The notes under the pieces are model-generated. The model saw nothing but the letters and a program-made list of their open reading frames with translations, searched no databases and was not told the DNA's origin. A stretch of DNA of 64,000 nucleotides, from the NCBI RefSeq assembly GCF_024223415.1, contig NZ_CP100500.1; one strand, given 5' to 3'. This stretch comes from Escherichia coli (lineage in GTDB: Bacteria; Pseudomonadota; Gammaproteobacteria; Enterobacterales; Enterobacteriaceae). The translations under genes were made by a program, and so were the position numbers. This document shows, piece after piece, positions 738 through 23,827 of the stretch (position 1 is the stretch's first letter; each line of letters begins with the position of its first letter).

Positions 738-3050
738 ATGCCTCGCTTGTTAACCAAACGCGGCTGCTGGATAACGCTGGCAGCTGCGCCCTTTCTCCTT
801 TTTCTTGCAGCGTGGGGAGCAGATAAACTCTGGCCTCTACCGCTGCATGAAGTCAATCCCGCACGAGTGGTCGTGGCGCAGGATGGTACGCCGCTCTGGC
901 GCTTCGCCGATGCTGACGGCATCTGGCGTTATCCTGTAACAATCGAAGATGTTTCTCCACGTTACCTTGAAGCGCTGATCAATTATGAAGATCGCTGGTT
1001 CTGGAAGCATCCGGGGGTGAATCCATTCTCGGTGGCGCGCGCAGCATGGCAAGATCTCACTTCGGGACGGGTTATTTCCGGTGGCAGCACGCTCACTATG
1101 CAGGTTGCTCGTCTGCTTGATCCTCACCCCAAAACATTTGGCGGCAAAATTCGCCAGCTCTGGCGCGCGTTGCAACTGGAGTGGCATTTGTCTAAGCGTG
1201 AAATTCTGACCTTGTATCTTAACCGCGCTCCGTTTGGCGGTACGTTGCAGGGGATCGGTGCGGCAAGTTGGGCTTATCTCGGAAAGTCGCCTGCGAATTT
1301 AAGCTATTCCGAGGCGGCAATGCTGGCGGTTTTGCCGCAAGCGCCCAGCCGTCTTCGCCCGGATCGTTGGCCGGAGCGTGCCGAAGCCGCGCGTAATAAA
1401 GTGCTCGAACGGATGGCCGTGCAAGGTGTGTGGTCCCGTGAGCAGGTAAAAGAGTCAAGGGAAGAACCCATCTGGCTGGCACCCCGACAAATGCCGCAAC
1501 TTGCACCGCTGTTTTCGCGCATGATGCTCGGTAAAAGCAAAAGCGACAAAATCGTTACTACGCTGGATGCCGGTCTTCAACGACGTCTGGAAGAACTGGC
1601 GCAAAACTGGAAAGGACGTTTACCACCGCGCAGCTCACTGGCGATGATCGTGGTTGATCATACCGATATGCGTGTTCGCGGCTGGGTGGGATCGGTAGAT
1701 CTCAACGATGATTCACGCTTTGGTCATGTTGATATGGTCAATGCGATCCGATCGCCAGGGTCGGTGCTCAAACCGTTTGTTTACGGTCTGGCGCTGGATG
1801 AAGGCTTGATCCACCCGGCATCACTGCTGCAAGACGTCCCCCGGCGCACCGGTGATTATCGACCAGGTAACTTTGATAGCGGTTTTCATGGCCCGATCAG
1901 CATGAGCGAGGCGCTGGTGCGCTCGCTGAATTTACCTGCTGTGCAGGTACTGGAAGCCTATGGACCGAAACGGTTTGCGGCAAAGTTACGCAATGTTGGA
2001 TTGCCGTTATATTTGCCCAACGGTGCTGCGCCGAATCTTTCGCTCATTCTCGGCGGCGCTGGTGCAAAACTGGAAGATATGGCGGCAGCGTATACCGCGT
2101 TTGCTCGCCACGGCAAGGCAGGCAAATTGCGCTTACAGCCTGACGATCCGCTGCTTGAACGGCCTTTAATATCGTCGGGGGCTGCGTGGATCATTCGCCG
2201 GATTATGGCTGATGAAGCGCAACCCTTGCCGGATGGTGCCTTGCCGCGTGTCGCTCCACTGGCATGGAAAACGGGCACCAGCTATGGCTATCGTGACGCC
2301 TGGGCGATTGGGGTTAACGCTCGCTATGTCATTGGGATCTGGACTGGCAGACCGGACGGCACGCCCGTTGTTGGTCAGTTTGGTTTTGCCAGCGCCGTAC
2401 CATTGTTGAATCAGGTCAATAATATCTTACTGTCGCGCAGTGCTAATCTGCCGGAAGACCCGCGCCCGAACTCAGTCACTCGTGGCGTTATCTGCTGGCC
2501 GGGCGGACAGTCTTTGCCGGAAGGTGACGGTAACTGTCGCCGCCGCCTGGCAACCTGGCTGCTGGACGGGAGTCAGCCGCCAACTCTATTACTGCCGGAG
2601 CAGGAAGGCATTAATGGCATTCGTTTCCCCATCTGGCTGGATGAAAATGGCAAACGTGTTGCCGCTGATTGCCCGCAAGCGCGACAAGAAATGATAAATG
2701 TCTGGCCGCTACCGCTGGAACCCTGGTTGCCCGCATCAGAACGTCGCGCTGTGCGCTTACCACCGGCCTCGACAATTTGCCCGCCATACGGTCACGATGC
2801 CCAGCTCCCGCTGCAGCTGACAGGCGTTCGCGATGGCGAGATTATTAAACGTTTACCGGGCGCAGCGGAAGCGACTTTGCCGTTGCAATCAAGTGGAGGG
2901 GCAGGTGAACGCTGGTGGTTTCTGAATGGCGAACCGTTAACTGAACGCGGGCGCAACGTGACCCTGCATTTGACGGATAAAGGTGATTATCAATTGCTGG
3001 TGATGGATGACGTAGGGCAAATCGCGTCAGTACATTTTTCATTTCAGTGA
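738..3050 (+). CDS. pbpC: Penicillin-binding protein 1C (peptidoglycan glycosyltransferase)
   Basis: 770-aa ORF with ATG at 738 directly after the yfhM stop; length and sequence match PbpC. Confidence 0.9.
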   Translation: MPRLLTKRGCWITLAAAPFLLFLAAWGADKLWPLPLHEVNPARVVVAQDGTPLWRFADADGIWRYPVTIEDVSPRYLEALINYEDRWFWKHPGVNPFSVARAAWQDLTSGRVISGGSTLTMQVARLLDPHPKTFGGKIRQLWRALQLEWHLSKREILTLYLNRAPFGGTLQGIGAASWAYLGKSPANLSYSEAAMLAVLPQAPSRLRPDRWPERAEAARNKVLERMAVQGVWSREQVKESREEPIWLAPRQMPQLAPLFSRMMLGKSKSDKIVTTLDAGLQRRLEELAQNWKGRLPPRSSLAMIVVDHTDMRVRGWVGSVDLNDDSRFGHVDMVNAIRSPGSVLKPFVYGLALDEGLIHPASLLQDVPRRTGDYRPGNFDSGFHGPISMSEALVRSLNLPAVQVLEAYGPKRFAAKLRNVGLPLYLPNGAAPNLSLILGGAGAKLEDMAAAYTAFARHGKAGKLRLQPDDPLLERPLISSGAAWIIRRIMADEAQPLPDGALPRVAPLAWKTGTSYGYRDAWAIGVNARYVIGIWTGRPDGTPVVGQFGFASAVPLLNQVNNILLSRSANLPEDPRPNSVTRGVICWPGGQSLPEGDGNCRRRLATWLLDGSQPPTLLLPEQEGINGIRFPIWLDENGKRVAADCPQARQEMINVWPLPLEPWLPASERRAVRLPPASTICPPYGHDAQLPLQLTGVRDGEIIKRLPGAAEATLPLQSSGGAGERWWFLNGEPLTERGRNVTLHLTDKGDYQLLVMDDVGQIASVHFSFQ

Positions 3051-3144
3051 AATATACAAAATATTTATTAATCTAATTATGGTATTTATATTTGGAATGC
3101 ATTAATAATTTAATAATCTCACGTTTTTTTAAACGACTAATTAT

Positions 3145-3158
3145 TTGATTGTTATCAG
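3145..3158 (+). promoter_or_regulatory. Putative FNR binding site TTGAT-tgtt-ATCAg upstream of the DmsA-like operon
   Basis: 9 of 10 matches to the FNR consensus TTGATnnnnATCAA, centred about 62 nt upstream of the ATG at 3214 in an AT-rich intergenic region. Confidence 0.5.
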
Positions 3159-3213
3159 CATTGTTCTCGAATAAATACGTGAATATTTATTTTTTCATTT
3201 TCGGGAACGCAAG

Positions 3214-5595
3214 ATGGATACGCCAGACGAAAAGGAACGCATTACATTTCCGCAAGTATCACGACGTAGTTTTTTACAAGCGACTTCCGCGCTTATCACT
3301 TTGCCTTTTATTTCTTCTACCGCAAAGGCGCAATCCCCAGATGCGTCGCCAGAAGTTACAGCTCCAGTAGCTGATAAAGTCGTGCCCACCTGTAGCACAT
3401 TTGACTGCGGTGGTAAGTGCGATATTCGGGCGCATATGCGCGACGGCGTGGTGACGCAAATTACCACACTTCCCGATAACGAACTCGATTCACAAATGCC
3501 GATTATGCGCGCCTGTGTTCGTGGTCGCGGCTATCGTAAATTTGTTTATCATCCTGACCGTTTGAAATATCCGATGAAGCGGGTAGGTAAACGAGGGGAG
3601 GGAAGATTTGAGCGTATCTCATGGGATGAGGCGACGACCTTAATTGCCGATAAACTGAAAAGGATCACGCAACAATATGGCCCGGCTTCACGTTATGTCC
3701 ATGTCGGGACGGCTGTTTCTGGTGGAACATTTTCTGGCGATGCGATGGCGCGTCGGCTGTTAAATTTAACCGGTGGTTATCTTGAATATTATCACTCAGT
3801 TAGTCTGGGTAATACTGCGGCCGCCACGCCTTACACGTATGGCGTGGCGGCCAGCGGTAACTCGATGGATACTCTTCTGGATACCAAACTGGTGATCCTC
3901 TGGGGGCATAACCCAACGGAAACCATATTCGGTCACACCAATTACTATTTTCAAAAAATGAAGCAAAACGGTACACGTTTTATCGTGGTGGATCCGCGCT
4001 ATTCCGACACCGTATCTTCACTTGCCGATCAGTGGATCCCGCTGTTGCCGACCACGGACAATGCGTTGATGGACGCGATGATGTACGTCATTATCAGCGA
4101 GAATCTCCACGATAAGACATTTATCGACACATATATTCTCGGTTTTGATGAAAACTCTATGCCAGAAGGCGTACCAGCCAACGAATCGTTGGTTGCCTAC
4201 CTTTTTGGCGCAAAAGATGGGATACACAAAACGCCGGAATGGGCAGAAAAAATTACCCACGTTCCAGCACAATCCATTCGTCAACTGGCACGCGATTACG
4301 CCACTACAAAACCCGCAGCGTTGATTCAGGGATGGGGGCCACAGCGACATATTTGCGGCGAACGCACCGCCCGAGGTTCAACTTTACTGGCCTCGATTAC
4401 CGGTAACGTCGGCATCAAAGGTGGCTGGGCGGCAGGTTACGGCGGTAGTTCTAATCGTAAATTCTGCGTTGGACCAGATATGCCAGAAAATCCGGTACAA
4501 GCGAAAATCTCGATTATGAACTGGATGCAGGCGGCGGATGATGCTTCTAAAGTTACGCCGCAAGATGGGCTTAAAGGTGTCGATAAACTCGACAGTAATA
4601 TCCGCCTGCTGTTCTCACTGGCAGGTAATTATCTGGCGAACCAGAACCCGGACGTCCACCAGGCCGCGAAGCTCCTTGAAGACGAATCTAAAATAGAATT
4701 CATCGTACTCAGCGATCTGTTCATGACTCCGAGCGCGAAATATGCCGATGTGTTGCTGCCGGAAACCAGCTTTATGGAACGCTGGAATATCGGCGAAACA
4801 TGGGGAACTGCGAGCTATCTTATTCTGTCAGAAAAACTGATTGAGCCGGATTTTGAACGTCGCACCGATTATGACTGGTTGCGTGACGTGGCGAAAAAAC
4901 TGGGTGTCGAAGCCGAGTTCAGTCAAGGACGTGATGAGAAGCAATGGATCGAGCATATCTGGGAGCAAACTCGTCTGGCGATGCCGGATGAAAATTTGCC
5001 GGACTTCGCGACCCTGCAAAAAACACGTCGACATCTTTTCAAAAGCGCGCCGCACATCGCTTTCGAAGCAAATATTCGCGATCCGCAGAATAATCCTTTC
5101 CCGACGCCTTCCGGCAAAATTGAGATCTTCTCTAAGCGTCTTTTTGATATGCAAGATCCAGAAATTCCCGCGCTTTCGCACTATGTCCCTGCCTTTGAAG
5201 GGCCAGAAGATAAACTGACGGCGAAATACCCGCTGCAGCTCATCACCTGGAAAGGGAAAAACCGTGCTAATTCCACCCAGTATGCTAACCCGTGGCTGCA
5301 AGAAGTTCAGACGCAAAAACTCTGGCTGAATCCGCAAGATGCAAAACAGCGCGGGATTAGCGAAGGAGATAGCGTAAAAATTTATAACGATCGTGGTGTG
5401 AGCATTATCCCGGTGGAAATAACCCCCCGTATCATCCCTGGCGTAGTTGCTATGCAGGCGGGGGCATGGTGGCAACCGGATGCACAAGGTATCGATCGCG
5501 GAGGCTGTGCCAATGTACTGAGTTCGACCCGCATTACGGCGCTGGCGAAAGGGAATTCGCATCAAACAATGCTGGTGGAGGTTGAGAAAGCATGA
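3214..5595 (+). CDS. Tat-exported molybdopterin oxidoreductase catalytic subunit, DMSO reductase family (DmsA/YnfE-like), substrate unknown
   Basis: 793-aa ORF with twin-arginine motif SRRSFLQ near the N-terminus, then a CxxxxCxxxC...C cysteine cluster typical of DmsA-type FeS sites; stop overlaps the next start (ATGA at 5592-5595). Confidence 0.85.
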   Translation: MDTPDEKERITFPQVSRRSFLQATSALITLPFISSTAKAQSPDASPEVTAPVADKVVPTCSTFDCGGKCDIRAHMRDGVVTQITTLPDNELDSQMPIMRACVRGRGYRKFVYHPDRLKYPMKRVGKRGEGRFERISWDEATTLIADKLKRITQQYGPASRYVHVGTAVSGGTFSGDAMARRLLNLTGGYLEYYHSVSLGNTAAATPYTYGVAASGNSMDTLLDTKLVILWGHNPTETIFGHTNYYFQKMKQNGTRFIVVDPRYSDTVSSLADQWIPLLPTTDNALMDAMMYVIISENLHDKTFIDTYILGFDENSMPEGVPANESLVAYLFGAKDGIHKTPEWAEKITHVPAQSIRQLARDYATTKPAALIQGWGPQRHICGERTARGSTLLASITGNVGIKGGWAAGYGGSSNRKFCVGPDMPENPVQAKISIMNWMQAADDASKVTPQDGLKGVDKLDSNIRLLFSLAGNYLANQNPDVHQAAKLLEDESKIEFIVLSDLFMTPSAKYADVLLPETSFMERWNIGETWGTASYLILSEKLIEPDFERRTDYDWLRDVAKKLGVEAEFSQGRDEKQWIEHIWEQTRLAMPDENLPDFATLQKTRRHLFKSAPHIAFEANIRDPQNNPFPTPSGKIEIFSKRLFDMQDPEIPALSHYVPAFEGPEDKLTAKYPLQLITWKGKNRANSTQYANPWLQEVQTQKLWLNPQDAKQRGISEGDSVKIYNDRGVSIIPVEITPRIIPGVVAMQAGAWWQPDAQGIDRGGCANVLSSTRITALAKGNSHQTMLVEVEKA

Positions 5596-6221
5596 GCCAA
5601 TTTAAAGAATTTGCATCTGTCAGCGACAAACAATTAGGGTTCTTTATTGACTCTTCGCGTTGTTCGGGCTGTAAAGCGTGTCAGGTGGCCTGTAAAGACA
5701 AAAACAACCTTGAGGTTGGGCGACGTTTTCGCCGCGTGTATGAAGTGAACGGCGGTGGCTTCATCGCCACTGGAGAGGGCGGTGTGAGTCATAATGTCTT
5801 TGCTTATACCCTTTCTGTTTCCTGTAACCATTGCGCGGATCCGATCTGTACCAAAAATTGCCCGACGATAGCGATGCATAAGCGTCCCGGAGACGGCATT
5901 GTGCGCGTGAATACTGATAAGTGCGTCGGTTGCGGTTACTGCGCCTGGTCCTGTCCTTACGGCGCACCACAAATGAATGAGCAGACCGGGCAGATGTCGA
6001 AATGCGATTTCTGTATTGATCTGCAAGCTAAAGGAGAACAACCCATTTGCGTGGCAACGTGCCCGTTGGGGGCGATTAAGTTCGGCCCTATTGATGAGTT
6101 GCGTGAAAAGTATGGCGATGTCAGTGATGTGAAAGGTTTACCTGATTCGTCGATTACGCAGCCAAATCTGGTGATTAAACCGCATCAGGGCGCGGAAAAG
6201 GAGGCGTCACATCATGCATGA
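5592..6221 (+). CDS. Four-cluster 4Fe-4S ferredoxin electron-transfer subunit (DmsB-like)
   Basis: 209-aa ORF with several CxxCxxCxxxCP motifs; translationally coupled to both neighbours. Confidence 0.85.
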   Translation: MSQFKEFASVSDKQLGFFIDSSRCSGCKACQVACKDKNNLEVGRRFRRVYEVNGGGFIATGEGGVSHNVFAYTLSVSCNHCADPICTKNCPTIAMHKRPGDGIVRVNTDKCVGCGYCAWSCPYGAPQMNEQTGQMSKCDFCIDLQAKGEQPICVATCPLGAIKFGPIDELREKYGDVSDVKGLPDSSITQPNLVIKPHQGAEKEASHHA

Positions 6222-7035
6222 ATTACCGTTAATGGCTTTTACGCTGTTGTTACAGGCATCGGTCGGTATGACGTTGTGGCTGGCGTTTCTTCATCGTCAT
6301 ATTTTAATCACCTCCAGCGCCCGCCCGGTTATGCGGCCGCCATTACTGTTGGCTTTTTTGGCAGGTGCCGTAGGGTTACTAATTTCTACCTTACATCTGG
6401 GTTATCCACTTAATGCGATGCATGCGCTAAGCCACTTTTCCAGTTCATGGCTGAGTCGGGAAATTATCTTTGGTGCGCTGTATCTGGCGCTATTGGGTTT
6501 ATCCACATTACTGGTCATGTTACGCAAAGGCGGCTGGCAACTCCTGCTTATGCTAGCGGCAGTGGTCGGGATTGTTGATGTTTTCTGCATGGCGCAAGTT
6601 TACATCCATACGTCGATTATCACCTGGCAGCATTACAACACACTGATTATGTTCTTAGGTACAGTGGGAATTCTCGGTTCAGCGCTGGTAGCAGTGTTTC
6701 GTATTAGCGGAATTTTGCCGCAGATTGATGCCCTGCGTAATGGATGCGTGTTGGTGATCGCTCTCCTGGTTCTGTTGCGTTTGTTGGTTCAGCCGTTGTG
6801 GATAGGGGATTTAACGGCAAATGCGATGCAGATAGCCACATTGCCACATGCGCCATTAGCGATGCTGGGACAGTTAAAACCCATACTGACACTAAGCTGG
6901 GGAATTTCCGTCATTGGGATGATGTTCTTTGCTGTCGGTGGTTGTAAAAAGAATATCCCGGCGGCGTTATTCGGTAGCGTAATGCTAGTGGGGAGTGAAG
7001 TTATGCTGCGTTTTGTCTTTTTTAGTATCGGCTAA
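6214..7035 (+). CDS. Polytopic membrane anchor subunit (DmsC-like)
   Basis: 273-aa highly hydrophobic ORF, overlaps the upstream gene by 8 nt and the downstream gene by 1 nt (TAATG); position matches the DmsC role. Confidence 0.7.
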   Translation: MHELPLMAFTLLLQASVGMTLWLAFLHRHILITSSARPVMRPPLLLAFLAGAVGLLISTLHLGYPLNAMHALSHFSSSWLSREIIFGALYLALLGLSTLLVMLRKGGWQLLLMLAAVVGIVDVFCMAQVYIHTSIITWQHYNTLIMFLGTVGILGSALVAVFRISGILPQIDALRNGCVLVIALLVLLRLLVQPLWIGDLTANAMQIATLPHAPLAMLGQLKPILTLSWGISVIGMMFFAVGGCKKNIPAALFGSVMLVGSEVMLRFVFFSIG

Positions 7036-7889
7036 TGTTAAGTCATAACATAACGATTGGCGCGGAATGCGCGCGCCAACGCTTTCGTTTTGCAACATGT
7101 CATGCCTGTGTCGAGGCTTGCCCGGCACAGGCGCTAACGCTGACAGAAGAGGGCATAGCGGTCGACGCGGAACAATGTATTGAGTGTGCGGTTTGCCAGT
7201 TTATTTGTCCGCAAGAGGCTATTCGTGGCGTTAATTCCCCTTTACGTTATTTTCGCAATCACACCCTGGTCGCACCTTTCACCACTATTGCGCCGACGCT
7301 GGAAGAACTTTTGCTATGGCATAAAGAGCAGGGGATCACAGCGATCGCGATTGATCTGAGTCAGGCGAAGGCATGGGAGCGCGCATTATTGCTGTTAAAC
7401 GAACGCTTACGGCAATATGGCGAGGAAGGCTGGTCTGTGGTATCTCCACATACCAGTGAGGTGAATGTTTCCCGGCGTCGTTTGTTCCATGTGCAGCGTG
7501 CGGATGTTCAGATGATACAAATACAACCAGGATTACGTCGGTTACATTATTTTTGGCCCCAGATTAGTGATGCTCGCCCGATGATGGATCCTCAAAAGTG
7601 TCAGCTTTGCGGTGCATGCTGGCGGGCCTGCGAGCAACAGGTCTTTTCGCTTAACGAAGGCCATTTACAAATCAATGATGCCTTGTGTAACGGATGCCAA
7701 AATTGTATTGCTGTTTGTTTTCATCAGGCAATGACCGTTGAATTGACAATTCTACCTGCAAAAATTGTGAATCTTCATGCTAATCGCAAAGTCTGTAAAA
7801 CCTGTCAAAAATCCTTTCTTACTTTTCAGCAAAATGCGCAAAATTGTCTTTATTGCCAACGTCATCGCTATGGGATGAGAGCACCATAA
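7035..7889 (+). CDS. Cytoplasmic ferredoxin-like protein with four Cys clusters and a C-terminal CxxC...CxxC pair
   Basis: 284-aa ORF without signal peptide; motifs CHACVEACP, CIECAVCQFICP, CQLCGACWRAC, CNGCQNCIAVC and a terminal CKTC...CLYC; coupled to the anchor gene. Confidence 0.7.
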   Translation: MLSHNITIGAECARQRFRFATCHACVEACPAQALTLTEEGIAVDAEQCIECAVCQFICPQEAIRGVNSPLRYFRNHTLVAPFTTIAPTLEELLLWHKEQGITAIAIDLSQAKAWERALLLLNERLRQYGEEGWSVVSPHTSEVNVSRRRLFHVQRADVQMIQIQPGLRRLHYFWPQISDARPMMDPQKCQLCGACWRACEQQVFSLNEGHLQINDALCNGCQNCIAVCFHQAMTVELTILPAKIVNLHANRKVCKTCQKSFLTFQQNAQNCLYCQRHRYGMRAP

Positions 7890-8029
7890 AAGTCGAGTTG
7901 TTGCTAAAACTCATTTTATTTTAAAAAAATGTTACCTTCATCAATAGTCAACGGCCCTGTTGCTCATTATAATCCGCGCCATCTCGTACGCTGGTACAGA
8001 CAACAACAGAACAATTTACAGAGGTAAAA

Positions 8030-8461
8030 ATGGCTATTGAACGTACTTTTTCCATCATCAAACCGAACGCGGTAGCAAAAAACGTCATTGGTAATATCTT
8101 TGCGCGCTTTGAAGCTGCAGGGTTCAAAATTGTCGGCACCAAAATGCTGCACCTGACCGTTGAACAGGCACGTGGCTTTTATGCTGAACACGATGGAAAA
8201 CCGTTCTTTGATGGTCTGGTTGAATTCATGACCTCTGGCCCGATCGTGGTTTCCGTGCTGGAAGGTGAAAACGCCGTTCAGCGTCACCGCGATCTGCTGG
8301 GCGCGACCAATCCGGCAAACGCACTGGCCGGTACTCTGCGCGCTGATTACGCTGACAGCCTGACCGAAAACGGTACCCACGGTTCTGACTCCGTCGAATC
8401 TGCCGCTCGCGAAATCGCTTATTTCTTCGGCGAAGGCGAAGTGTGCCCGCGCACCCGTTAA
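8030..8461 (+). CDS. ndk: Nucleoside diphosphate kinase
   Basis: 143-aa ORF beginning [15 protein letters not shown], recognised as Ndk. Confidence 0.95.
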
Positions 8462-8610: not shown

Positions 8611-9765
8611 ATGTCTGAACAATTAGTCACACCTGAAAACGTCACCACCAAAGATGGAAAAATCAACCTGCTGGATCTCAATCGTCAGCAGATGCGGGAG
8701 TTTTTTAAAGATTTAGGTGAAAAACCCTTCCGCGCCGATCAGGTGATGAAGTGGATGTATCACTATTGCTGCGACAATTTTGATGAGATGACTGACATCA
8801 ACAAAGTGTTGCGCGGCAAGCTGAAAGAGGTGGCGGAAATCCGCGCACCGGAAGTGGTTGAAGAACAGCGTTCATCTGACGGCACCATTAAATGGGCGAT
8901 TGCCGTGGGTGACCAGCGTGTCGAAACGGTGTACATCCCGGAAGACGACCGCGCTACGCTCTGCGTCTCTTCGCAGGTGGGGTGTGCGCTGGAGTGTAAA
9001 TTCTGTTCCACCGCCCAGCAGGGCTTTAACCGCAACCTGCGGGTGTCGGAAATTATCGGCCAGGTGTGGCGTGCGGCGAAAATCGTCGGCGCAGCAAAAG
9101 TCACCGGTCAGCGCCCAATCACTAACGTAGTGATGATGGGCATGGGCGAGCCGCTGCTCAACCTGAACAACGTCGTTCCGGCGATGGAAATCATGCTTGA
9201 TGATTTCGGTTTTGGCCTGTCTAAACGTCGCGTGACGCTTTCCACTTCCGGTGTAGTTCCAGCGCTGGATAAACTGGGCGATATGATCGATGTTGCGCTG
9301 GCAATTTCCCTGCACGCGCCGAACGACGAAATTCGTGACGAAATTGTGCCGATCAACAAAAAGTACAATATCGAAACGTTCCTTGCTGCGGTGCGCCGTT
9401 ATCTGGAGAAATCCAACGCCAATCAGGGCCGAGTCACTATTGAATACGTGATGCTTGACCACGTTAACGACGGCACTGAACACGCTCACCAACTGGCGGA
9501 ACTGCTGAAAGATACGCCGTGTAAGATCAACCTGATCCCGTGGAACCCGTTCCCGGGCGCACCGTATGGACGCAGCTCGAACAGCCGTATCGACCGTTTC
9601 TCAAAAGTGCTGATGAGCTACGGTTTCACCACTATTGTGCGTAAAACGCGTGGTGATGATATCGATGCTGCCTGTGGTCAGTTGGCGGGCGATGTTATCG
9701 ACCGTACGAAACGTACCCTGCGTAAACGGATGCAGGGTGAAGCCATCGACATTAAAGCGGTCTGA
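8611..9765 (+). CDS. rlmN: 23S rRNA m2A2503 / tRNA m2A37 radical SAM methyltransferase
   Basis: 384-aa ORF recognised as RlmN (YfgB), with the CxxxCxxC radical SAM motif. Confidence 0.95.
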
Positions 9766-9769
9766 TAGC

Positions 9770-9811
9770 CATTACGCCACGGTTACTTTATGTACCGTGG
9801 CGTAATGTTTT
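9770..9811 (+). terminator. Rho-independent terminator after rlmN
   Basis: Perfect 14-bp inverted repeat (cattacgccacggt / accgtggcgtaatg) followed by TTTT. Confidence 0.7.
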
Positions 9812-10049
9812 ATGAATGAAGTATTAAGTTGCAATTGTCTGGTCAATATTAACGGTGCGTTTTTGCTGACTTTAAGGCAGTATGTAACGATGCAACAGTA
9901 AGTTAGCCTTAGTGAATGTGGGCTTTGTCACGAGCACACAGACGGTCTTATACTGTATGATAACGGTTAACTTAACGGATGTTTCGCGGTGTGGGTGAGC
10001 ATGATGGTTCACCGGCATCTCAATTCTCATTTAAACGTACCTGCAGCGA

Positions 10050-23813: not shown

Positions 23814-23827
23814 TTGATATATATCAA
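23814..23827 (+). promoter_or_regulatory. FNR consensus site TTGAT-atat-ATCAA upstream of pdeF
   Basis: 10 of 10 match to TTGATnnnnATCAA, about 135 nt upstream of the pdeF ATG. Confidence 0.55.

Follow-up and report, generated by a model that had tools for sequence, protein, structure and literature searches.

Gene X of a dmsABC-type operon in Escherichia coli: an accessory iron-sulfur protein with an internal twin-arginine motif

The 64,000-nucleotide stretch of Escherichia coli DNA analysed here (RefSeq assembly GCF_024223415.1, contig NZ_CP100500.1; "the window", to which positions refer unless another locus is named) contains genes resembling dmsA, dmsB and dmsC followed by a fourth gene, designated X. 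Its product is clearly a functional accessory iron-sulfur (Fe-S) protein, widespread within a narrow niche, and what is new about it is a conserved internal motif that fits the consensus of twin-arginine translocation (Tat) signals, together with a central domain that has no fold match. By analogy, and with a probability of about one half, we regard X as a functional counterpart of NapF that would act in the Fe-S maturation or proofreading of DmsA and DmsB before their export. Since X has no export signal whereas DmsA has a canonical Tat signal, protein and enzyme would share a compartment only before export; such a pre-export meeting, taken together with the co-location of DmsD/TorD-type chaperone genes, points to a role in biogenesis.

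The protein, its family and its internal motif

In the list of open reading frames (ORFs) and their translations, X is a 284-amino acid (aa) frame with an ATG start, overlapped by no opposite-strand ORF of 60 aa or more, and its product is identical to RefSeq WP_000948588.1, which is annotated "4Fe-4S dicluster domain-containing protein". The ATG and the stop codon of dmsC have one base in common (TAATG, 7033-7037), dmsA and dmsB overlap, as do dmsB and dmsC, and terminator-like sites are absent from the junctions of the operon, that between dmsC and X included. The four genes are co-directional, overlap or abut one another and keep their order elsewhere, and are thus predicted to form a single operon.

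The 20 cysteines of X lie at residues 12, 22, 25 and 29; 48, 51, 54 and 58; 189, 192, 195 and 199; 218, 221, 224 and 228; and 254, 257, 271 and 274. Sixteen of them make up four [4Fe-4S]/ferredoxin-type motifs, the first of which is atypical (C12-x9-C22-x2-C25-x3-C29-P), while the remaining four form a C-terminal CKTC...CLYC pair. Matches to Fer4-clan models of Pfam cover residues 20-65 and 183-235 (PF00037, 46.4 bits against a cutoff of 21.1; PF12838, 46.2 against 27; PF14697, 37.1 against 35) and place X among proteins with 2x[4Fe-4S] ferredoxin domains; only such generic Fer4 models were matched in Pfam and NCBIfam, and no specific family model was attained. Sequence analysis detected no N-terminal signal peptide, and there is no membrane segment, the Kyte-Doolittle maximum over 19 residues being 1.42. 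With a 61-sequence alignment as input, AlphaFold2 gave a confident model (predicted local distance difference test score, pLDDT, 92.7; predicted TM-score, pTM, 0.89) that suggests five parts: two ferredoxin-like domains, one N-terminal and one C-terminal, between them a central alpha/beta domain and then a linker of lower confidence, and last a beta-ribbon with the final four cysteines. No matching family or fold was found for the central domain. The pattern CxxC-x13-CxxC of the ribbon is invariant, beta strands being predicted at 244-263, and H277, G280 and M281 are invariant inside the enterobacterial subfamily; Pfam hints for this Cys4 ribbon, to HypA (13.6 bits) and to a RING finger (15.6 bits), stay below threshold. 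The architecture is therefore Fer4 - unclassified alpha/beta domain - twin-arginine linker - Fer4 - Cys4 ribbon, and as a whole it is covered by no curated model and no solved structure.

The original prediction, made from the sequence alone, had taken X to be the fourth gene of the operon and had described four cysteine clusters and a terminal CKTC...CLYC pair in a cytoplasmic protein with no signal peptide. The TAATG overlap, the overlaps upstream of it and the terminator-free junctions bear out the former, and separate transcription of X finds no support in silico; sequence analysis agrees with the latter. The domain search and the structure prediction proposed at that time have now been run, the one returning generic Fer4 domains only, the other a confident model with two ferredoxin-like domains and a beta-ribbon tail.

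Relatives of X are few. A word-indexed search of 5.8 billion proteins recovered only 14 full-length ones (32-98% identity, 282-291 aa), and a profile compared exhaustively with 1.84 billion representatives gave 76 with E < 1e-30. They range over Enterobacterales, Proteus, Photobacterium, Paraferrimonas and Mesobacillus (Bacillota), and the names they all bear are generic, for instance "4Fe-4S binding protein" or "ferredoxin". All 20 cysteines, and L92, are invariant in the 61-sequence alignment, and because this holds across homologs with only about 25% identity to X, the cysteine pattern is judged to be far above chance. The ratio of nonsynonymous to synonymous substitution rates (dN/dS), 0.11-0.17 for X against two Escherichia relatives and 0.06-0.10 for dmsABC, indicates that X is under purifying selection. 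Mean pairwise identities among 12 operons are 82% for A, 87% for B, 50% for C and 41% for X. In evolutionary rate the operon thus falls into a slow pair, DmsA and DmsB, and a fast one, DmsC and X, sharply set apart although synteny is conserved.

A sister group of longer proteins (330-435 aa) has both ferredoxin domains, an internal SRRxFL motif and the Cys4 tail in common with X; its members include P0101, P0105-P0107, P0113, P0114, P0117, P0119, P0130 and P0163 in our numbering, and one is encoded at 5607-6659 of locus L025. In these the central domain is larger and has extra conserved cysteines and histidines (...PC-x-H...H-x-DC-x2-C...), possibly a further metal site, and there is a conserved C-terminal LFQV.

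Besides the cysteines, the best-conserved element of X is the internal twin-arginine (RR) motif. Its columns in the 61 sequences read S31/A10/T6, R51/K7, R59, a variable position, L/F/W 58 and L/F 56, giving a family consensus of (S/A/T)-R-R-x-(L/F/W)-(L/F), with R148 present in 59 of the 61. Residues 146-151 of X match the Tat consensus, S/T-R-R-x-F-L-K, but are not placed as in a Tat signal peptide, which is N-terminal and is followed by a hydrophobic h-region and a cleavage site: the motif begins at residue 146 of 284, a hydrophobic h-region is absent, and the 27 residues that follow have a mean Kyte-Doolittle value of -0.36, as against +0.70 for the DmsA signal. No methionine occurs at residues 2-158 of the translation to provide an alternative start. 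Lying in mid-protein, with no such methionine upstream and a polar segment after it, the motif is predicted to be unable to act as a working export signal. The notion that a non-exported protein may bear a remnant Tat signal has been described before (Ize et al. 2009, as cited in PMC4464133). The linker, residues ~141-156, has a pLDDT of ~64 in the full model and < 50 in the isolated domain; the motif thus falls in the least confident part of the model, as expected of an exposed, peptide-like element. In the sister group it is more canonical still (LSRRQFLR, LSRRNFLK). In Mesobacillus jeotgali (CP025025.1, locus L022) the PhsA-like subunit (5660-7852, minus strand) has the Tat motif KLSRRGFIKAS and the X homolog (9001-9915, plus strand) the internal motif KLSRRGFFTKLS, which are near-identical (KLSRRGFI and KLSRRGFF). 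As possible signal mimicry this pair is striking, but it is one case only, and in statistical terms not a general one.

Genomic company and proposed role

Flanking genes could be read at 21 loci, 17 of them enterobacterial and four more distant; two further distant members were excluded, their contigs being too short. A search for related loci with a narrow alignment yielded Enterobacterales alone. At all 21 loci the genes next to X encode a Tat-exported molybdopterin oxidoreductase and the four-cluster Fe-S subunit that goes with it. The order dmsA-dmsB-dmsC-X is found at all 17 enterobacterial loci, which represent at least four different chromosomal sites, and in Proteus. Elsewhere the arrangement varies: Paraferrimonas sedimenticola has dmsA-dmsB-X-dmsD, with dmsC absent; locus L020 has X followed by genes for a radical S-adenosylmethionine (SAM) protein, a TorD-family protein, a DmsA-like protein (861 aa), the B subunit and DmsC; in M. 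jeotgali X is divergent from TorD family-PhsA-like-B-NrfD; and the sister group at L025 has multihaem cytochrome-A-B-TorD family-cytochrome c-X', with msrB nearby. The membrane partner is thus variable (DmsC, NrfD, c-type cytochromes, or none) while the A/B pair is constant, and X accordingly tracks the exported A/B pair and its maturation genes, not a given quinol-oxidising anchor. The co-occurrence analysis that had been proposed with the original prediction therefore upholds its tie of X to Dms-type operons, in place of a common stand-alone ferredoxin: at every locus with readable flanks the gene is found with a DmsA/PhsA-type oxidoreductase and its Fe-S subunit.

The maturation genes in question, apart from one radical SAM gene, belong to the TorD/DmsD family (PF02613), a member of which adjoins X or lies within two genes of it at no fewer than seven loci and follows it directly at L004/L005, L007 and L018; the L004 protein has 40% identity to E. 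coli DmsD. At L006 a truncated copy after X (8874-9326) can be aligned over 151 of 200 residues and is uncalled as a gene; it may be decaying. The radical SAM protein of L020 (446 aa, 6634-7974), encoded between X and the TorD-family gene, matches an HxsC-type maturase model weakly (43 bits, far below its cutoff); it may be one more enzyme that matures or modifies that reductase. In Pseudocitrobacter faecalis DSM 27453 (L011, 3166-5537) the dmsA ortholog is in two overlapping pieces in different frames, which suggests a frameshift, be it a true one in a pseudogene or an error of assembly; the other three genes, dmsB, dmsC and X, are intact there.

As a NapF analogue, X would be translated in step with DmsC from an FNR-type anaerobic promoter. 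At most four [4Fe-4S] clusters would sit in its two ferredoxin-like domains, with a further metal, either structural zinc or rubredoxin-type iron, in the Cys4 ribbon. The protein would then dock on the DmsA precursor and on DmsB while both are still cytoplasmic, and would deliver, insert or reductively stabilise clusters, namely FS0 of DmsA and/or the four of DmsB. The flexible SRRxLF segment would serve as a handle by which X is recognised by a DmsD/TorD-family chaperone or by TatBC, cluster loading being thereby coupled to export proofreading, and X would remain in the cytoplasm upon export of DmsAB. That the internal motif is such a remnant-signal handle for a twin-arginine-binding chaperone or TatBC is put forward only tentatively. 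We are equally doubtful whether X is a decoy signal peptide inside an Fe-S donor, and with it a new class of Tat-proofreading factor. As such, a DmsD/TorD protein or TatBC might conceivably bind the pseudo-signal, which would compete with the DmsA signal or relay to it, export being released after the clusters are loaded or checked, and the central domain and Cys4 ribbon might, speculatively, be the client-binding parts.

Several points weigh against a NapF-like function. In a BLASTP comparison X and E. coli NapF score 28 bits, a generic ferredoxin similarity. The NapF model TIGR00402 (cutoff 102.2 bits), which gives 248 bits with E. coli NapF as a control, is outside the best 25 models both for X (lowest listed, 30.7 bits) and for its C-terminal half alone (lowest listed, 18.6 bits), and membership of X in the NapF family was rejected for the whole protein and for that half. 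Mimicry by the motif of the signal of its own DmsA partner was likewise rejected, a permutation test over 13 loci being non-significant (p=0.065 by BLOSUM score, p=0.31 by identities). Over longer distances X is the fastest-evolving gene of the operon, a trait that would fit a dispensable role under loose constraint just as well. The double-arginine motif of NapF itself is reportedly inessential to NapF function, and to our knowledge canonical E. coli DmsABC matures with no X-like protein. Finally, STM2530, the orthologous enzyme of S. Typhimurium, showed no DMSO (dimethyl sulfoxide)-dependent phenotype (bioRxiv 10.1101/2022.11.29.517730).

The original prediction had offered two roles, that of a cytoplasmic electron donor or acceptor and that of a maturation factor replacing a missing DmsD-type chaperone. 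Maturation is the option that fits best, given the pre-export meeting and the chaperone neighbors, and the replacement of DmsD is rejected: dmsD is present in 5,418 of 5,426 complete E. coli genomes, PF02613 genes occur beside X, and X itself has no match to PF02613 (Nitrate_red_del) in Pfam. Electron transfer is unlikely, mature DmsAB being exported. In its most developed form it would make X a subunit on the cytoplasmic face, a four-cluster wire between a cytoplasmic donor or acceptor and the membrane complex, docked on DmsC or another anchor, and the W. succinogenes NapF, which according to a title cited in PMC10609526 needs NapH for membrane attachment, would be a precedent. The two-domain, four-[4Fe-4S] layout resembles HycF, FwdF and RnfB, dmsC and X are translationally coupled, and DmsC and X both evolve fast, with correlated divergences (r=0.86); that correlation, however, is not above the one between A and C (0.90) and is therefore mostly phylogeny. 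DmsC-type anchors, as established for E. coli DmsABC, are without haem or any other cofactor for electron transport across the membrane, and the DmsAB active site is on the far side, in keeping with the Tat motif SRRSFLQ of DmsA. Neither X nor the adjoining genes encode a flavin- or NAD(P)-binding domain detectable in Pfam, and the inconstant membrane partner, which is absent altogether in Paraferrimonas, also argues against a wire.

DmsB is signal-less and hitchhikes on DmsA, and this is a precedent for a very improbable alternative in which X would be co-exported with DmsAB as an extra periplasmic redox subunit, for example for electron entry where DmsC is lacking; the place of X at the dmsC position in Paraferrimonas would suit it. 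The Enterobacterales, however, have DmsC, which would already feed DmsB, and X has no membrane segment or quinol site with which to substitute for an anchor, nor can its RR motif, with no hydrophobic region, itself target export. Several loci moreover group X with chaperone or radical SAM genes and not with structural genes, and anchor-less operons that lack X are also known (PMC4464133). The least credible role is that of a redox- or oxygen-sensing regulator acting on how strongly the operon is expressed or how stable its products are, with Fe-S clusters as sensor and the Cys4 ribbon binding nucleic acid or protein. Zinc ribbons are frequently nucleic-acid binders, and fast evolution outside the ligands is common among regulators; FNR, which senses via O2-labile [4Fe-4S] clusters, shows that such sensing occurs. 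But no DNA-binding domain was found in X with Pfam or NCBIfam, 16 cluster-ligand cysteines far exceed the need of a sensor, the conserved FNR-type box upstream of dmsA already explains regulation, and the last, translationally coupled position in a structural operon is atypical.

If X is a maturation factor of the NapF kind, it bears on how Fe-S clusters are inserted into Tat-exported molybdoenzymes and how this is coupled to export proofreading, and it would be a second, independent and structurally distinct family tied to the enzyme class that NapF serves, present in E. coli, Salmonella, Proteus and Bacillota. The internal RR motif is a clear, mutable handle, which makes the idea of a handoff to a chaperone directly testable, and with the orphan central domain it renders the role of X experimentally tractable. 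The practical weight is moderate, the gene being already annotated in generic terms and its function assigned by analogy.

The island, its distribution and its regulation

The window is chromosomal and matches E. coli strain NCTC10444 at 100% identity. Its gene order is yfhM-pbpC-[dmsA-like, dmsB-like, dmsC-like, X]-ndk-rlmN-rodZ-ispG; the coordinates are collected in Table 1. The TIGR02166 score of the DmsA-like protein is below the exception cutoffs for DmsA, YnfE and YnfF.

Table 1. Features of the dmsABC-X operon and its surroundings in the window
Feature	Position	Strand	Evidence or remark
Gene X, fourth gene of the operon, predicted 284-aa cytoplasmic Fe-S protein	7035..7889 (stop included)	+	ORF/translation, RefSeq identity, dN/dS, AlphaFold2
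N-terminal 2x[4Fe-4S] ferredoxin-like domain, residues ~10-66	7062..7232	+	Pfam Fer4/Fer4_7 at residues 20-64; 8 Cys invariant in 61 sequences
Central alpha/beta domain, residues ~67-140, conserved E-L-L-x-W-H patch (91-96)	7233..7454	+	
Internal twin-arginine (Tat-consensus-like) motif S146-R-R-R-L-F151 in flexible linker	7470..7487	+	Column counts in 61 sequences
C-terminal 2x[4Fe-4S] ferredoxin-like domain, residues ~180-236, Cys 189, 192, 195, 199, 218, 221, 224, 228	7572..7742	+	
C-terminal four-Cys beta-ribbon C254xxC257...C271xxC274, then H277-x2-G-M-R	7764..7886	+	Cys invariant in 61 sequences
dmsA-like catalytic subunit, 793 aa	3214..5595	+	TIGR02166 1124.9 bits, above cutoff; Tat motif SRRSFLQ
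dmsB-like four-cluster Fe-S subunit, 209 aa	5592..6221	+	TIGR02951 265.6 bits, cutoff 214.1
dmsC-like membrane anchor, 273 aa	6214..7035	+	PF04976 DmsC 84.4 bits; stop overlaps start of X
FNR-like box TTGATtgttATCAg, centred ~63 bp upstream of the dmsA start	3145..3158	+	Conserved offset in orthologous promoters
Flanking genes pbpC and ndk	pbpC 738-3050; ndk 8030-8461		Island between them, 3051-7889

Among the 5,426 complete E. coli genomes, the island between pbpC and ndk (counted where at least 80% of the region is covered) is present in 379 (~7%), and in the others pbpC abuts ndk. Its G+C content is ~0.49 and that of the flanks ~0.55. The same pbpC-dmsABC-X-ndk synteny is found in Salmonella enterica subsp. 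arizonae and subsp. diarizonae, Enterobacter, Lelliottia, Pseudocitrobacter and Huaxiibacter, and this pattern resembles that of an ancestral island since lost by most E. coli more than that of a recent insertion.

FNR-type boxes (TTGAT-N4-ATCAA with 0-1 mismatch) occur at -61 to -74 in 10 of 18 orthologous dmsA upstream regions, those of L002, L008, L009, L012-L017 and L023, with perfect sites in Salmonella, Enterobacter and Proteus. The pattern as such is not enriched across the window (4 found, 2.45 expected); the box upstream of dmsA is retained here in spite of this because its position is conserved in the orthologous promoters, and it suggests that expression of the island is anaerobic and FNR-dependent. 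A perfect FNR consensus, TTGATATATATCAA, is also found at 23814-23827. Between X and ndk there is a sigma-70-like promoter match (TAGTCA-17-TATAAT, 10/12, at 7945-7973), and no terminator-like site was found 3' of X; ndk may for these two reasons have two sources of transcript, a promoter of its own and read-through out of the island.

Comparison with known systems

NapF is described as cytoplasmic and as having four [4Fe-4S] motifs; it binds NapA, whose Fe-S cluster assembly depends on it in Rhodobacter (Olmo-Mira 2004 and Nilavongse 2006, as cited in PMC10609526). Its importance differs among organisms (PMC10609526; PMC4159696), and it is the sole dedicated Fe-S factor proposed for such enzymes, in a role that is disputed (PMC10609526). 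X is like it in being cytoplasmic by prediction, in having four [4Fe-4S]-type cysteine motifs, and in being encoded in the operon of a Tat-exported molybdenum-bis(pyranopterin guanine dinucleotide) enzyme with one [4Fe-4S] cluster in its catalytic subunit. Both also have an S-R-R-x-hydrophobic sequence, which is ASRRGIL, N-terminal to the cysteine motifs, in NapF of E. coli K-12, and SRRRLF, internal, in X. The differences are that X has 284 aa where NapF has 164, that its ferredoxin domains are split by the unclassified alpha/beta domain of ~75 residues, that it has the extra, invariant Cys4 ribbon, and that the enzymes served are of the DmsA/YnfE or PhsA type and not NapA.

The dmsABCDE operon of Haemophilus influenzae includes a NapF-homologous gene, dmsE, which its authors grouped with dmsD as chaperones (PMC8340005). 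There, as here, a dms operon includes a gene for an accessory Fe-S protein, but D and E follow ABC in H. influenzae, while X follows C directly; no Pasteurellaceae protein is among the homologs recovered for X, and no link to H. influenzae DmsE was made. In S. Typhimurium, STM2530-STM2527 correspond by synteny to dmsABC-X, so STM2527 is very probably the ortholog of X, and "a fourth gene" in the STM2530 operon has been mentioned (bioRxiv 10.1101/2022.11.29.517730). The X homologs of subsp. arizonae and diarizonae are only ~38-40% identical to X, against 83% for DmsA. X also bears on this third "DMSO reductase" of Salmonella (STM2530-2527). The extraintestinal serovars Typhi and Paratyphi A have it in disrupted form, and dmsA on its own may not complement should the accessory gene and the cognate subunits be required.

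Like X as read here, the DmsD/TorD/NarJ proteins (PF02613) assist this class of enzymes from the cytoplasm, and their genes often adjoin X; they bind twin-arginine leader peptides and so are candidate receptors for its internal motif. They nevertheless belong to an unrelated, all-helical and cofactor-free family, with which X coexists. Nor is X a four-cluster subunit of the DmsB type, a candidate identity that was rejected: neither Fer4_11 (PF13247) nor TIGR02951 is among the matches listed for X, whereas the dmsB-like gene upstream reaches 265.6 bits with the latter. FdhE is a cytoplasmic accessory of Tat-exported formate dehydrogenases that has a CxxC rubredoxin-like iron site and contacts the catalytic subunits; X would share with it the role of accessory factor for a Tat-exported enzyme and has CxxC pairs as well, but ferredoxin domains are absent from FdhE, and no FdhE family match is listed for X. 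The best sequence and structure matches of X, at the level of a single 2x[4Fe-4S] domain, are to FwdF, MvhB, HycF and RnfB, electron wires within cytoplasmic complexes; no whole-architecture match was obtained with these (TM-score normalised to X, <= 0.29), and the features peculiar to X (central domain, RR motif, Cys4 ribbon) are missing from all of them. Against the systems compared, X is best regarded as a variation on the NapF-type concept, to which an internal twin-arginine motif and an orphan central domain have been added.

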